Origin: Ptychomitrium polyphyllum
Lineage: Eukaryota
Reading direction: 5' to 3'
DNA length: 64,000 nt
NCBI GenBank assembly: GCA_973851085.1
Contig: OZ316775.1
Location: 13,702,001 to 13,766,000 of the forward strand
The notes under the pieces: generated by a model
What the model saw: only the letters and a program-made list of their open reading frames with translations
What the model was told of the DNA's origin: nothing
Databases searched by the model: none
Part shown: positions 20,927-59,967 of the stretch, one piece after another
How the letters are laid out: each line of letters opens with the position of its first letter
How positions within the stretch are numbered: position 1 is the stretch's first letter
Translations under genes and position numbers: made by a program

Positions 20927-21511
20927 ATGGCAGCTCCGGTACAGACTGAGCGCAGGTCAGCGATTGCGGAAGTTAGCGACGTGAGGAGGTCGAAGGGTCT
21001 GATCGATATGGCGGACGGTGCCGTGAGGGATTTAGTGGAGGCGTTCAAGATGTTCGACCGCAATGGCGACGGTAAGATTTCGAGTGCGGAGTTAGGAACC
21101 GTGCTGCGCTCGCTCGGGGAGAAACCGACGGATGCGGAGTTGGCGCAGATGATAAAGGACGTGGATGCTGACGGCGATGGCGAGATTGATCTGCAGGAGT
21201 TTATTAATTTGCATTCTGATTCGATGAGAGGCGGCGCTGCGAGTGAGAGTGTTGCTGGCGAAGGAGTGGACGCGTCTTCCGCCACGGAGGCTCTTCAGTC
21301 GGCGTTTGAGGTCTTTGATTCGGACAAAGACGGTTTCATCTCGGCTCCGGAGCTGCACAGGGTGTTGTCGGGCCTCGGTGATGATCATGTTTCTATGGAC
21401 GATTGCCGGTACATGATCAGTTGCGTGGATAAAGACGGCGACGAATTGGTCGATTTTACAGAGTTTCAGAAGTTGATGACTGGCCCTCTGACTGGCCACC
21501 TTTCGCACTGA
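20927..21511 (+). CDS. Calmodulin-like protein (CML), four EF-hands, intronless (copy 1)
   Basis: EF loops DRNGDGKISSAE, DADGDGEIDLQE, DSDKDGFISAPE, DKDGDELVDFTE in one 194-aa ORF. Confidence 0.93.
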   Translation: MAAPVQTERRSAIAEVSDVRRSKGLIDMADGAVRDLVEAFKMFDRNGDGKISSAELGTVLRSLGEKPTDAELAQMIKDVDADGDGEIDLQEFINLHSDSMRGGAASESVAGEGVDASSATEALQSAFEVFDSDKDGFISAPELHRVLSGLGDDHVSMDDCRYMISCVDKDGDELVDFTEFQKLMTGPLTGHLSH

Positions 21512-24428: not shown

Positions 24429-24998
24429 TTAACACAAAACAGCTCCAGACATCAAGAATTGGAATTCGTTGAAATCAACCATGTGATCACCGTCCTTGTC
24501 CACGCAGTTGATCATGTGCCGGCATTCAGCCAACGAGGTCTTCTTGTCACCGAGACTCCACATCACTCTCTGAAGCTCCTCAGCAGAGATAAAGCCGTTC
24601 TTGTCAACATCAAACACATCAAAGGCGGCCTGCAACGCATACTTCTCTCCGCTGCTCGTAACTCTGTCCCCGCCCGTGCTCGACCTCGGGGAAACATCAC
24701 TCGCTCTAGCGCTTTTCTCAGTGTGAAAGCTGATAAAATCGTGCAGGTCGATAAAGCCGTCGCCATCGCCGTCCACTCTCGCCATCAGCTCATCAAGCTC
24801 TAACGCATTCAGATCGTCCCCGAGGGAACTAAGCACAGTCCCCAGCTCAGACCTCGAGATTCTTCCATCCGCATCTCGATCAAATACCTCAAACGTAGCA
24901 GCAAGCTCCTTCACAAGAAGACTCGACTCAGGAGAAGTAACCACCTCTGAGCGACTACAGCTCCCCTTGCTTCGGTTTTTCGTTCTAGTAAGCTTCAT
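24429..24998 (-). CDS. Calmodulin-like protein (CML), four EF-hands, intronless (copy 2)
   Basis: ATG at 24998 (MKLTRTKNRSK…). EF loops DRDADGRISRSE, DGDGDGFIDLHD, DVDKNGFISAEE, DKDGDHMVDFNE. Confidence 0.92.
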   Translation of the reverse strand: MKLTRTKNRSKGSCSRSEVVTSPESSLLVKELAATFEVFDRDADGRISRSELGTVLSSLGDDLNALELDELMARVDGDGDGFIDLHDFISFHTEKSARASDVSPRSSTGGDRVTSSGEKYALQAAFDVFDVDKNGFISAEELQRVMWSLGDKKTSLAECRHMINCVDKDGDHMVDFNEFQFLMSGAVLC

Positions 24999-28700: not shown

Positions 28701-29270
28701 ATGAAGCTGAGATTGAGGAAGCTCGGTTCTAGGAGCTCTAGCCGTCGTATGGAGGCAGTCGAGGTTGACCCCATCGTTCCTCTTGTGAAAGAGCTGACCG
28801 CCACTTTTAAGGTGTTCGACAAGGATGGTGATGGCAGAATCTCGAAATCCGAGCTTTGAGTTGTGCTGCGTTCGCTTGGTGACGACATGAGCGACGATGA
28901 GCTCGATGAGGTGATTGTGAAGGTGGACGGTGATGGCGATGGCTTCATCGACCTTCATGAATTCATTAGCTTCCATAGTGGCAGGACTGGATCGGGATTC
29001 GACTCTGTTTCCCGGACATCGAGCAAGGGTAGAGATGGAGCGAGCAGCGACGAGAAGTACGAGTTGCAGGCCGCGTTTGATGTGTTTGATGTTGACAAGA
29101 ACGGCTTTATCTCTGCTGAGGAGCTTCAGAGAGTGATGTGGAGTCTCGGTGACAAGAAGACCTCGTTGGCGGAATGCCGGCACATGATCAACTGCGTGGA
29201 CAAGGACGGTGATCACATGGTTGATTTCAACGAATTCCAATGCTTGATGTCTGGTACATTTGTTTGCTGA
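28701..29270 (+). pseudogene. Calmodulin-like gene (copy 3) with in-frame premature TGA at codon 53
   Basis: ATG at 28701 (MKLRLRKLGSR…). The frame reads DKDGDGRISKSEL*VVLRSLGDD with TGA at 28857-28859, where the paralogs have Gly (SELGTVL/AELGTVL). The rest of the frame is intact to TGA at 29268-29270. Confidence 0.85.
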
Positions 29271-35803: not shown

Positions 35804-36343
35804 TGTCATAGATATAGATCATGCAATATAGTCCTTAGAACAGTCTAGAACCTTTTAGTATACTATAATAACTTCTTAGAATACTTTTAAATGTCTCCAT
35901 AGTCTTTCCATATTTTTAGGAGCTTCCTAGGAAAGTTCCTCCACCTTAGGTAATTTCCTAGGAACGTTTCATCATCTTAGAAAACTTCCTATGAAGGTTC
36001 TATCTCTTTAGGAAACTTCCTAAGAAGATTCCACTACTTTAGGAAATTTCCAAGGAAGGTTCCAACATCTTAGAAAACTTCTTGGGAAGGTTCCCTAGAC
36101 TTCTAGAATATTCTTAAGCCTTGTAGGAAGCTTCTTTAAAAGTATCCTAAGAGATACAAACGTCATAGTATAAATAGGAAGCAAGACAAGGTATTCCTTA
36201 GTCTTGCCAATACAAGTTGTGGATTATCTTGAATCCTGCTTTATTCTAGTCTTAGTATCAAGTTCTTGTTAATCATTAGCTCCTTGGAAGCTAATTCTTG
36301 GAAAACACTTCGTTTTTGCTTCTTATTTCTTGTGTTCCTAACA
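35804..36343 (+). mobile_element. Solo LTR (540 bp) of an LTR retrotransposon
   Basis: Begins TGTCA and ends TAACA, flanked by an identical 5-bp TSD ATATG (35799-35803 and 36344-36348). Contains about six ~31-bp tandem repeats (35916-36100) and TATAAATA at 36169. Nested in an AT-rich island (about 35290-36990). Confidence 0.85.
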
Positions 36344-54029: not shown

Positions 54030-55245
54030 CTTTAGGTCGAAGTATTCTCTTTTAACGCAGCGATCCATGAATTACTCCATGTACAGCTCAAGAGTACCCA
54101 AATCCATGGAGGCGGTGGGGCGGTATCGGCAGGCGATGCCGCAGATGGCCATAGCGTGGACATAATTCGCAGCGCTGCGCACCGTTGACCAAAATTATGG
54201 CAACGCAGGCGTTCCCCAAGTTCAATGTTTATTTTGATTATTTGCTGTGAAGCCATATTGACGTCGACAGATCCGTTCTAGTTAGCACATGGAGTGAACA
54301 TTTTCGAGTACATGGCCAAGCATGCGGACGTGCTGGCGGTGTTCAGAAACGCCGTGAGCCAGTGGTCACAGACTGTGCAGGTGCCCCTCTTTCTGGTGCG
54401 CTACAAAGAGTTTTAACAACACAATGGGCTCGCTCATGGACATGAGAGGCTGTACCGGGACCAATATCTTGCAAATCGTGCGCCATCACATTACCCGTGC
54501 TATTAACTTCGACCTGCCCTAAGTGTCTCCTTTTCCCCTGCTGCCCCCGGTGAGCTGAGACATGCTATTACAGCTCATAACGAGTCTCCACTAATTTCGA
54601 GCTGGTACTGATCATCGTCTATGAGCTAGTGGCCTTACGCTGTTTCGAACCGACCAACGTGACATACCGGGAGTGTTGTTCGCCCTGTGCAGGAATCGAG
54701 CATGGCGAAGGTGATACTTTTGAAAGCTTACTGACAGGATGCAATGCAATTTCCTTGAAGGTAAGTATAGTACTGCAGCTGTTATTGAATGTACTTTGGG
54801 ACCAATGGTTTTTGGCAACACAGTTATCAAATTGACTCTGAGAGTCAATTTGCTCACTACGTCTGCTTATGATGATTTCAATTAATTGATTTGGTGACTT
54901 AGTGATTGGACATTGTTCATTTTCAGAAATTGTTGCACGATTGGGACAACGACTCCTGCATAAAAATTCTGAAGAAATCCCACGAAGTGCTGCTAGAGAT
55001 GGGAGGAAGAGTGATCATAGTTGAGGCCATGGTGCCGCCTCAGGAGACGCCACGGAGAACCCATGCGGTGGAGCAAGAGTTTGGGTTGAAGTCCAGTGTG
55101 ATCGTGTCCGTGCATTGCATCTGAGGCAAGGATCGATCCGAGCATAATTTTCATCGCTTGGTGTTGGCGGCCCGGTTTCGTAACTTCCAAGTTGTGGTCA
55201 AGTTTGATGTATCATATGTCGTAGAAGCATTCAATTGGTTACATG
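54030..55245 (+). pseudogene. COMT-like (class II) O-methyltransferase pseudogene, 5'-truncated
   Basis: DPF*LAHGVNIFEYMAKH…, a frameshift near 54415, LMDMRGCTG (degenerate DxGGGxG) and AINFDLP*V. Next exon GIEHGEGDTFESL…AISLK; last exon KLLHDWDNDSCIKILKK…GGRVIIVEA…GKDRSE. Multiple stops; introns retained. Confidence 0.85.
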
Positions 55246-56122
55246 ACACATCAATGATTTCTAGAGCTAGATTATGGATCAAGAGTTAGGGTAGGTTTTC
55301 GTGTGATCAAGGCGTATCCATTGCACGTTCAAACAGCAGGTGCTTACACTGTTTTGAATACTTCATGGACATTAATAGGCCTCTTCAATTTTTCCTTGTT
55401 AAGAAGAATAGTGCACATACTTTAGCAATACAGTAGCAGATGTTTGTAATCAACCCCTTCCAAACACCAAGCTGTTTGGCCAAGCTCCACATTTTTGTGC
55501 AGCTAGTCCATAAATTACAACAATTCAAAATAAAAGAACAAAGAATTAGTCAATACAGACAGACTGTTACAAGCTACATCTACTCAGTGCACAAGTAGCA
55601 CTACCGAGTGCCAACTGCAAAGGCCCTGCAAATCCTCGCTGAATGGCTCACTCAAATCTTTGCTGAGTTGTCATCGAGAAACCATTTTTTTTGAGGTGGT
55701 TTAGTTCCAGAGACTTTAATATCACGAGGTTCGAATGATTTCCTCTGCCAGTTCAAACTCACTTGCAGCAAGCAGCAGCAGATGTGATAATTATGTTTTT
55801 ACACTGGTTTTTATTCAGTTGTGCTATATATTAGTTCTGATGATGGCAATGGATGAGGGACAGCAATATATGCTGATGAGATGGTTATGCAACAATGTTT
55901 ACTTTGAATTCCATTAAACATAATGATTTCACAACATTTCTCATGAAACATTTCGTCACAAGTTTCACGCAAAGAATCTCTGCTTTATACAAAAATCAAG
56001 TTTCCATCGTTTGTGCCAAATTGATGACGTCATGAACTTTGTGTCCATGTTCCATATCCCCAACTAGAGTGTTCTTATCACTTGCAAACAGAGAGAACTA
56101 CTGCTCAAGTTCATGACGATAG

Positions 56123-59100
56123 CTATAGTTTGAAAACTGCAGCACCCGCAGATGGCTTTGAGGCAAATACGTAAAGATCTAAATCTTTCTCTTTGATTTT
56201 CCCCTTCTTCACCAAAGGTTGAAAGTAGGACTCCTGCACAAAGACGATCATCAACAATCATTCTGAAGTCTGATTACCCCAAATCTGGAAACACACACTT
56301 CCAATAAATTCATATACTCCACCTTTTCAGCATGTTAGCAGCATAAAATATACCAATGATAATTGACTAAAGCTTTGCTGAGTTTCTAGAGATGTTCTAG
56401 ATAATGCCAACACTAGGGCAGGAAAGCTGAAATTAAATACCTTGAGAATAGAAATAAAAGAATCCACTTCCTCTTCCTTGACAAGGGCTACAACGCAACC
56501 GCCCCAACCAGCTCCTGTTAACCTGGCTCCAATTGCACCATTGGCTCGGCATAGTCCAACCAAGCTCTCCAGCTCAGGACAACTAAAACAACTCAAACGA
56601 GGCCCTTCACCCATTAGACAGCACTTTACAAGTAGGTGCATTACTGAATAATCAAACAGCAGATAATTTTAATAATGCCAAAGGAGGACCACAAACCTGC
56701 ATTCATATAGAAGGCTGCAGCTGGCATGGCTCTCATTCATGAGCTCTCCTAACCTCTTCAACACCAACTCCTCGCTGCGTCATATCCAATCTCAAAATAG
56801 AAAAGGTCAGAATTATAAAACCAAAGATAAGGAAATACTATACATGGAAAACGGTATCCGTTCTGCTTTAATCGACCCTCGCATTCATCACAAAAAGTAT
56901 TACCAATACTTATGAAAAGTCACATTTCATCTACAGAGGACAACAATACCGTTTTACTAATATGAATTTACATACAGAAGTGACATTCGTTGATATTGAA
57001 AAATACCTCTCTGATTGCACTGTTGCTCCTCGAAAATCATGTACCCGCTTGGCTTCAGTATACACGTGCTTGGCCCTCTGCACGACATCCACTCACACTC
57101 TTACCCAGTCAAGAAAAAGGTATTAATGCACAGCGGAATTCGGCATCTCTATTAGAAGCAAAATGTTGCTATTAATAGATGCTAATAATTCTAGGCAACA
57201 CTAGACAAGACTTAATATAATATTCACAAGGTTGAGTAATGAAGGAACCAACTTGATGGAGCTTAAAGTGGTTGGCAGCAGCCAACACAGCTAGAGTAGT
57301 AGCCGACTTTTTCATGATGGTTGTTAATTTCGCTTGCAGAATGTCTTCGATTTCTTTAGTGTTGTAAGACGCTTCATGCAAAAACTTCTGCAGGAGTTTT
57401 AGAAATAAAATAGTGAGGAATAAGCTTGTTGGGTAGAGAAAGAGCTACTAGCTTATCATAATCCACTTGAAGAAAGCCTTGAGTACCTCAACAGCGATGA
57501 CAGGGCTGGAAGAGCCAGAGGCAGAAGCATATTTAACACATAGACCCTCCACGTCTGAGAGCGTGTTCACTGACGTCCTGGCCTCCTCCAGTGACATCCC
57601 AAGTTTCACAGCTAGGACCATCTGCCATTTCAACAACATTGTTAAAATCTATGCAGGGAATTATGCACTACTTGCTAATGAGTATTTCATATAGGTTCAA
57701 CAATTGGACATACGGCTACTCCTATAGCAGGAGTTGTATCTTCGTTCAAGTCAATTTAAGAACACATGTCCAATTAAGATTTAAAGATTCTAAATCTTAC
57801 GGCAGCCAAGCGACACTCCACAACGCGATTGTTGTAGTTTGTGGAAGCAGTCTCTGCTTTCTTCGACTCTGTGAGAGAGTTTGCAACCACAAATGACCCA
57901 GCCTTGGGCAGCAAAACATCACTTGCCCGAATGGGACTAAAATCTATCAGTTTAGCTACTCCAGGCGCTGCCATGATTGAGATAGCCTGGTCCATACCGC
58001 CTGACTGCGTACCAATGTGACGCTCGCATGTGCAGCTGAACTCCGCGACCTCTTGCTACACACCATACAAACATAACCAAATATCATTCTTCCATATCAA
58101 CGGGATGATAACCAAGGGCATACAAGGCTGATTGAAAATGCCCTGGACAAGTATCCACTTTCTATGAAGTTACCACCAAATTTATCCGCGGGTTTATAAG
58201 AAAATTCTACCAAGTATCACTGAAACGGACAAGCCTCTAGTTAGTGCAAGATCCAGTTCATTATAAGTAACATATTCATCTGAGAATCTCTGAGCAATCA
58301 AAATTTTCACTTGAGCTGAGCTGATATACCTTGGAAAACCTTAGATTGAATAGAGATGAGAGAGAAACAACACTAACACAGACGAGTGCAGAGGAGCTGG
58401 AAAGTCCCGCGCCTGTAAACACATTAAAAACATCAAGAGAAAAGAAATAGAAGAATGACCTTAGAACTTGGTTTATCTAGAGATGCCAGGATCGCAATGG
58501 CAGAAGAGCAGACAATAGCTGCCGAACTTGATAACCCGGCCCCTGCACCCTCCATATGATTTACAATTATGGTTTATTCACCACTTTAGCATATAACCTT
58601 ATGAAATATTGTGATTCATAATGCTGAGCATTTGATAAAGGAAATAAATGCTTCATTAACCAGATTAAGAGGATGCGAATGAATAATTCGGCCATCAAGA
58701 CATTTGGACGGAAAAATCTAACCAATTGGAACTGTGCCATCAACTAAAGCATTAAGTCCAACTGAAGCTCCAAGAGCCTCGCTTTTGGACGCAAGATGCT
58801 CAAAGACTCCTTTGTATCTGCAGGAAGAAAAGTGGCACATATTTCTTGGCTCCGTATAAACGAACTTGCAGGATCCAAAGTCAAATAGTATTCAGCAAAA
58901 TCAAGTGGTTCTCGTGGTCATGGATAAGGAATCAAGACGCAATCAAAACGATAAAGCAGTTTCGTAAACTAAACCACTTCATATGAGATGGCAGTGAACC
59001 CACAGATGACCTGAGAGTAAACTCCAATTTTCCGTGGCTGTATTTACAAACATTGATAACAGAAATCAAACAGAAGCAGAGTACAAGAATTCATGCCACC

Positions 59101-59967
59101 ACGGTGGCAATCATACCCGCAAATAAAATAGTTTGCCCACACATGATTCTCTCTATCCACTTCCTGTTAAAATACAACACATAATTTAGAAACCACTATG
59201 TCTTCAAGAAGGTCCGGCTTAAGGTCACCGTTCCCCTGTTCGTATCCATTGAATTATCTCTAACAAGCAAACCAAAAAAACTACCCACACTGTTCAAACA
59301 TCGAAGCACTAACTTGCCCCCACATTATGCAAGCTTCATATAGTGAAAGCACCCAAAAGAAACTGGAATTGTGACGAGGCAATAAACACGGTAGAGTGAC
59401 CTGGGACGGGTCGGCCGAAAACTCGCAAGCTTGGAATTCTGATGAATCGACGTTGGCAATGTGCAACAGCGGGGGTCCCTGCTCGCGCTTACCAATAGCA
59501 ACGACTGTATCCTGACGAATTGCCATCGGAAGTACAGAATAACCTTCGTAATCAATGTGCTCGCCTATTAGGTTCACCCTGCCTGCAAGAATCACATGTG
59601 AACACAAATATCATTGCAAAATTTTCTTTAAATATTTCCAAACGAAGCATTTTTGACGCAAACTCACTCCGTCGAGCGATTTAGCCTAGGTAAAAATTTA
59701 GGCTGCTTCAATAAGGGACATTACAATGTGAAGCAATCCGATTTGTGGCCAAACCCCCTGTAAGCAAAAGCATCAACAAAGCGAAGGGATTGCGTTTGAC
59801 GAACCTGGAGCACGGGCATACAGCTCAGGCTCACAACCATACAGTCGCTTAAATTGCTGCTTCAAATTTTCATATCGGAGGGATGCTTCCTCTCGTAAAG
59901 GACCTTCGCCGTAAATCTCACCCAAAGATGTGAAGACAGGAATCGGCTCCTCCATGCTGTCCGCCAT
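56123..59967 (-). CDS. GALK: Galactokinase (GHMP kinase, plant GAL1/GalK)
   Basis: Exons include 59805..59967 (…ARAPG), 59401..59582 ([21 protein letters not shown]), 59117..59163, 58723..58817, motif-II exon 58460..58542 or 58330..58412, 57801..58055 ([14 protein letters not shown]), [12 protein letters not shown], and last exon 56123..56233 (…[16 protein letters not shown]). Confidence 0.96.
58330..58542 (-). other. Tandemly duplicated 83-nt exon pair in galactokinase (candidate mutually exclusive exons)
   Basis: 58460..58542 encodes [28 protein letters not shown]; 58330..58412 encodes [28 protein letters not shown]. Both are CAG|…|GT, phase 1 to 0, with a 47-nt spacer. Confidence 0.85.

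Follow-up and report, generated by a model that had tools for sequence, protein, structure and literature searches.

The window, that is, the whole stretch of 64,000 nucleotides (64 kb) that we analysed, contains one moss galactokinase gene, whose best named match was KC19_10G123600 of Ceratodon purpureus (93% identity); no second galactokinase was found within the 64-kb window. The gene model that we built from the coordinates has 12 coding exons and gives a protein of 498 aa with either of two alternative exons, 5A or 5B (Table 1). Of the 498 residues, the window A protein shares 464 with the A isoform of Ceratodon and the window B protein 465 with the B isoform, and the window protein and KC19_10G123600 were grouped in the exon-free tree (96/91, three-row set). 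According to Pfam and NCBIfam the product is a predicted GHMP kinase of the galactokinase family. When the isoforms of the Ceratodon orthologue were searched, the PF10509 galactose-binding signature and the GHMP N and C domains were above the cut-off, and six out of six proteins scored 295-306 bits against TIGR00131 (gal_kin), whose curated cut-off is 226.65 bits, so that both Ceratodon isoforms pass.

Table 1. Exons and spacer of the galactokinase gene, with positions counted from the first letter of the window.
Feature	Position	Strand	Evidence
Coding exon 1, ATG at 59967	59805..59967	-	gene model; tblastn with Ceratodon protein
Exon 2, galactose-binding signature (GHMP motif I)	59401..59582	-	gene model, domain search, tblastn
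Exon 3	59117..59163	-	gene model, tblastn
Exon 4, phase-1 end right before the phosphate-binding loop	58723..58817	-	gene model
Alternative exon 5A, 83 nt: Ala170 loop and following helix	58460..58542	-	gene model, isoform comparison
Spacer intron, 47 nt	58413..58459	-	gene model
Alternative exon 5B, 83 nt: Ser170 loop, Val177	58330..58412	-	gene model, isoform comparison
Exon 6, constitutive, catalytic GGMDQ stretch	57801..58055	-	gene model, tblastn
Exon 7	57487..57621	-	gene model
Exon 8	57253..57387	-	gene model
Exon 9	57007..57077	-	gene model
Exon 10	56697..56774	-	gene model
Exon 11, GHMP motif III glycine loop	56441..56582	-	gene model, tblastn
Exon 12, ends at TAG stop	56123..56233	-	gene model

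Regarding the rest of the window, the galactokinase is neighboured by an O-methyltransferase gene on the forward strand (54050-55300; PF00891, E 3.3e-8 for 54927-55121). Its reading frame is interrupted by a TGA at about 55122, beyond which the sequence is still protein-like, and the gene is possibly a pseudogene or a truncated allele. There is also an inverted repeat pair (24445-24921 and 28778-29254) whose two arms of about 480 nt are 82% identical; a third copy, at 21296-21483, is partial (about 70%). At 35906-36093 a unit of about 95 nt is repeated directly in tandem with 80% identity.

The two alternative exons are adjacent and, as the earlier note had described, each of them has 83 nt, a CAG acceptor and a GT donor, runs from phase 1 to phase 0 and is stop-free in the coding frame. 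The codons of the loop motif have diverged as was claimed, since all seven codons of the shared motif differ between 5A and 5B. Over 27 codons, 39 of the 81 nt are identical (pS 0.85, pN 0.39), and the peptides, which occupy the same region of the protein, share 12 of 27 aa. Exon 5A is identical to the Ceratodon A isoform at 24 of 27 aa and 5B to the Ceratodon B isoform at 25 of 27. The loop motif occurs exactly twice in the six frames of the window. Furthermore, the prediction that including both exons or neither shifts the frame was borne out by the gene models: joining 5A and 5B gives a stop at codon 214, skipping both gives a stop at codon 197 and retaining the spacer gives one at codon 199, while the models with a single exon yield 498 aa. 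A duplication created by the assembly was considered and is ruled out. In each of two DNA-like runs, both from one sample that may be the window's own source, one contig spans 56711-60400 without differences or joints; because these contigs cross both exons unchanged, the tandem pair is not an assembly duplication, and orthologues exist in other species.

The earlier note had predicted two isoforms that differ in the loop exon. This is supported by annotated pairs from the same locus in at least five other species, together with the frame logic and the conserved tandem copies. We surveyed the members of 30 protein clusters, where the pairs are public gene models, and among the members listed we found pairs differing solely within the loop exon in Ceratodon, Selaginella, Diphasiastrum, Coccomyxa and Myrmecia. 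The isoforms show 15 differences at residues 170-188 in two strains of Ceratodon (KC19_10G123600 and M758_10G119200), 12 differences at residues 176-195 between X1 and X2 in both haplotypes of Selaginella moellendorffii, 10 in Diphasiastrum complanatum (O6H91_18G056800), 15 in Coccomyxa subellipsoidea (WJX75_004129) and 12 in Myrmecia bisecta (WJX72_004871). Sphagnum fallax and S. compactum have orthologues of the A form, and S. jensenii, S. troendelagicum, S. magellanicum and S. balticum have orthologues of the B form. In Elliptochloris bilobata there is one A model and one 532-aa model with both exons joined in frame (KAK9845403.1); the latter counts against strict exclusivity, although it may be a prediction artefact. 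Ten of the 30 clusters gave no further isoform pairs among the members listed, and when the B loop was the query of a homologue search limited by region, 3 proteins from 19 candidates were returned and nothing was added. On short contigs we also found intronless products that are A-only or B-only (P0001, P0130, P0004 and P0146), and these are probably spliced transcripts.

In other lineages the models seen have one form, or the two forms seem to lie in different genes. Among the gene models seen, the proteins of ferns and liverworts are single A-like forms, and the streptophyte algal proteins seen (Spirogloea, Closterium and Klebsormidium) are of A type only. Within the liverworts, Riccia (P0085, P0092) has a single A-like loop with Ser at the diagnostic site, residue 170, where Marchantia has Ala; therefore, this site can toggle by itself on an A-like background. 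In Physcomitrium patens, all three loop-covering members of a first cluster (9 of 9 members listed) are B (P0129), and the sole loop-covering member of a second cluster (2 of 2 listed) is A (P0152), which suggests that the two forms were partitioned between paralogues after gene duplication. The second gene of Ceratodon, KC19_7G173000, is A only.

The doubled exon, for which the earlier note suggested a search in relatives, is indeed present at the DNA level in a Sphagnum-type locus and in three green algae. Among the 79 metagenome loci listed, 7 have two copies, 46 a single Ser copy, 20 a single Ala copy and 6 none. The seven two-copy loci represent four organisms. In the Sphagnum-type locus (L032) the peptides are those of the Sphagnum A and B proteins and the layout is 83 nt, a spacer of 76 nt and 83 nt; the corresponding lengths are 86/67/92 in a green alga (L070-72), 86/297/86 in an Elliptochloris-like alga (L075-76) and 86/65/89 in a Coccomyxa-like one (L077). 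Every copy in these four organisms has a phase-1 AG acceptor and an in-frame GT donor, the exon lengths in two-copy loci leave a remainder of 2 on division by three, and the Ala copy precedes the Ser copy in all five distinct genomic loci, the window included. Regarding seed-plant-type loci, all 15 among the loci listed, which come to about 7 distinct sequences, carry a single Ala exon of 83 nt, and our sliding-score scan detected no second copy in them, the second-best window scoring at most 27.7 versus 59-68 in the two-copy loci. Copy B was probably lost in seed plants.

Three further features of these loci were observed. Four loci (L028, L033, L041 and L068) are intronless with an Ala-type loop, in the same listing as the 46 single-copy loci with Ser. 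In an algal locus (L071:3536-4069) the end of a later exon, the VVECRLAA stretch, recurs in tandem as several degenerate copies. The Sphagnum-type locus (L032:962-1484) has an intron within the GGMDQ region, which is a single exon (exon 6) in the window, so that this intron has probably disappeared in the window moss or its lineage. A control comparison of exon 6 gave 52/62 aa.

Against a decay of the second copy in relatives, the frame, the splice sites and the copy-specific residues of both copies are intact across mosses and lycophytes. The comparison of the window with the Sphagnum-type locus, which is rough because it covers 27 codons, gave pS 0.61 and pN 0.08 for copy A, pS 0.67 and pN 0.24 for copy B, and a cross-copy pN of 0.34. 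These values, with synonymous sites near saturation, agree with the proposal of an old duplication with both copies under purifying selection. In land plants, six of six B copies have Ser170, Val177 and Leu186, and six of six A copies have Ala170, Ser175, Ala177 and Ile180. The exon trees have 24-27 columns. In a tree of 28 rows and 27 columns the six land-plant B copies formed one clade (97/86); a lycophyte A+B clade was rejected (p=0.0275), and for a moss-only A+B clade the test fell just short of the 0.05 level (p=0.069). All eight moss-lycophyte quartets favoured copy orthology, even without residue 170. With algal rows added, Selaginella B was drawn off from the remaining B copies of land plants. 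The land-plant B clade therefore indicates, on the evidence of these short trees, that the duplication is older than the moss-lycophyte split. In the full-length tree the lycophytes were placed with the bryophytes (support unstarred). The origin of lycophytes is dated to about 400 million years ago in the accessible part of one source (PMC1184070).

Whether the algal pairs go back to the same event is a matter of weighing, and we lean towards a single green-plant origin of the exon pair. The exon, its flanking intron positions and phases, the order of the copies and the diagnostic residue are all shared with the algae. The alternative is that the algal pairs are separate duplications that converged on Ala and Ser, in which case the land-plant switch would be only as old as the ancestor of mosses and lycophytes. 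This is quite possible, even if we incline against it. Residue 170 aside, the land and algal copies carry no copy-wise signal (12 of 36 quartets for copy-wise grouping, 6 ties and 18 against), the AU tests rejected neither grouping (p 0.594 and 0.536), and both the A-type streptophyte algal proteins and the independent toggling in Riccia fit separate events. Nevertheless, saturation of a helix of 24 residues would wipe out any other signal, and gene models often give one isoform only. Separate duplications, if true, would alter the age of the switch and leave its mechanism unchanged. A different reading would make copy B (or A) a relic or a decay-shunting exon, a single protein being made. The 5A acceptor is weak, being the most pyrimidine-poor of the gene (5 of 17 positions, versus 6-14 for the others), and copy B evolves faster than copy A. 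However, mosses and lycophytes have kept both copies in good order despite near-saturated synonymous sites, and full-length A-only and B-only proteins are annotated, so we hold the relic to be very improbable.

We consider it highly probable that this moss galactokinase, with its two tandem intact loop exons, is alternatively spliced to give two 498-residue kinases with a predicted kinetic difference. Mutually exclusive use of the old duplicated exon is thus supported by the comparisons of genes and gene models. Exons 5A and 5B would compete for the same upstream donor and the same downstream acceptor. Joining both or neither would shift the frame, and nonsense-mediated decay would then enforce exclusivity. 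In the window species the spacer would be too short for 5A to be joined to 5B, which would add a second layer. Among the 12 introns of the gene the spacer (GT..AG) is the shortest, the remaining ones having 99-299 nt, and branch-point-like motifs, identified by motif match, lie 24-33 nt from the 5A donor; therefore, both the frame rule and the distance rule may apply in the window. The earlier note had held that, besides the frame, the 47-nt spacer is probably too short to splice efficiently. This fits the window species, but it is not general, because the spacers elsewhere have 65, 67, 76 and 297 nt, and frame incompatibility is thus the feature common to all. With 297 nt, the spacer of L075 lies outside the steric range and the frame rule alone can apply there. 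As expected of homologous mutually exclusive exons, the window pair has homologous tandem exons, each compatible by itself with the splice sites and the frame, and, by the criteria in the available text of PMC5740500, a candidate exclusion mechanism in its 47-nt spacer and an exon length not divisible by three. The same text gives the frame shift as the commonest mechanism in human exclusive-exon clusters (60%), with a donor-branch point distance below 50 bp in 9% (PMC5740500).

In order to judge what the swap may do, the position of the exon in the protein has to be considered. In the AlphaFold models of the Ceratodon isoforms it covers the phosphate-binding loop and the helix 168-183, and the A and B models have the same secondary structure except for the first residues (pLDDT about 91). 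The first copy has Ala and the second Ser at residue 170 in 12 of the 12 tabulated pairs, which are not independent of each other. This residue is equivalent to Ala172 of yeast Gal1p, by a numbering inferred after subtracting a presumed 20-residue tag of 2AJ4. The best 150 family representatives have Ser (116), Ala (28), Thr (1) or a gap (5) at this site; B thus carries the family-wide residue and A the residue of seed plants and yeast. A search for covariation with residue 170 in these 150 gave mostly gappy columns and nothing interpretable, and exon B alone had zero matches to PDB chains at E up to 10. In land plants, a change at residue 170 goes with one at residue 177, seven positions further along the helix, which is consistent with an altered packing behind the loop. 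As the serine and the loop length are kept and B equals human GALK2 at the site, A and B are likely both active kinases with the same fold. Since both forms are probably active and B has the family-wide residue, we favour kinetic tuning, in which the swap would tune ATP/Mg handling or turnover and possibly the preference for Gal or GalNAc, by analogy with KHK-A/KHK-C; a Gal/GalNAc shift would be a less likely special case.

Two other functions have to be weighed against kinetic tuning. If the swap were a switch of sugar specificity, as the earlier note had allowed, the Ala form would be a kinase of galactose and the Ser form would prefer GalNAc. The aligned solved structures point that way, with Ala in the galactokinases of yeast (2AJ4) and Bifidobacterium (6TEP) and Ser in the human GalNAc kinase (2A2C), which is also the best sequence and fold match of the B isoform. 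However, this comparison consists of three structures, the constitutive exon 6 is likewise closest to 2A2C, and Ser is the family majority, being found also in many single-copy algal genes for which galactose is the presumed substrate. In addition, the sugar-binding signature (residues 55-66) and GGMDQ (209-213) lie in constitutive exons, so a change of specificity could only be indirect; this indirect form is what is left of the claim, and the switch as such is unlikely. Slightly less likely still is its extension to the whole history, in which one ancestral chlorophyte/land-plant switch would give a galactose kinase and a GalNAc-kinase-like enzyme, one copy being kept later (Ala in seed plants, Ser in many prasinophyte-like genes) or the two being split between paralogues (Physcomitrium). 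The sensor-like role suggested before fares worst. One isoform would be a catalytically dead galactose sensor of the Gal3p kind, and the diagnostic residue does correspond to Gal1p Ala172, which comes second in the Ser-Ala dipeptide that Gal3p has characteristically lost according to the accessible literature. Nevertheless, the two-residue deletion of Gal3p is absent: both copies have the full loop length and the serine that corresponds to Gal1p Ser171, copy B matches human GALK2, an active kinase, in its loop, and Ser is the commonest state of the family. We therefore give the dead sensor hardly any credence.

The event alters an active-site loop of a core enzyme of sugar salvage, and the switch would have been kept since before the moss-lycophyte split, perhaps since the origin of green plants. 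Deeply conserved splicing that changes the protein is considered rare in plants. Full-text literature searches, which leave subscription journals mostly outside, found no description of alternative exons in a plant or algal galactokinase. In a splicing survey of Selaginella, where mutually exclusive exons are the least frequent class (about 6%) according to the accessible text, the ten supplementary files contain neither the two locus numbers nor the word 'galactokinase', although other identifiers are possible there (PMC5310277). The exon switch is apparently undescribed, though public annotations contain its isoforms. A GHMP kinase with two natural variants, in tractable model mosses, offers a ready experimental system, for which Physcomitrium, with the forms seemingly split between paralogues, and the seed plants, with one form kept, are natural comparisons. 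The pair could also show the role of the residue beside the Gal1p/Gal3p switch site.

Among known systems, the moss exon pair is by analogy most like the A and C forms of human ketohexokinase. KHK-A and KHK-C derive from the duplicated exons 3a/3c, in an enzyme whose fold is unrelated to that of galactokinase. Likewise a sugar kinase with two spliced isozymes, it is described, in the part of the source available, as exclusive in most cells, with isozymes of different kinetics (PMC11332825). It is an animal gene with a measured functional difference, whereas the moss difference is predicted from sequence; unlike in ketohexokinase, the moss swap covers the phosphate-binding loop and its helix. 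In vertebrates, homologous mutually exclusive exons are of ancient origin, and at the protein level they are over-represented, as far as the accessible text goes (PMC4465641). They are likewise tandem duplicates of equal frame that are swapped without breaking the domain (PMC4465641; PMC5740500), and exclusivity is likewise achieved by a frame shift or a donor-branch point distance below 50 bp (PMC5740500). That set belongs to animals, whereas the galactokinase pair belongs to green plants, at least to mosses and lycophytes and possibly to chlorophytes, and was apparently lost in seed plants. Regarding the protein itself, human GALK2 (PDB 2A2C/2A2D) is the best sequence match (E 5.9e-105, 41% identity) and, as 2A2C, the nearest solved fold to the B model (TM 0.82/0.91), and like copy B it has Ser at the diagnostic site of the loop. 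Finally, yeast Gal1p and Gal3p (2AJ4, 3V2U) differ in function at the same loop residues, Ser171-Ala172: in the available portions of the reports, Gal3p is without this dipeptide and its insertion restores kinase activity (PMC4238866, PMC5089864, bioRxiv 10.1101/2022.03.07.483271). In yeast, however, these are paralogous genes and activity was lost by a deletion of two residues, whereas the moss has one gene, in which a substitution and a new helix are exchanged and the length of the loop is retained.
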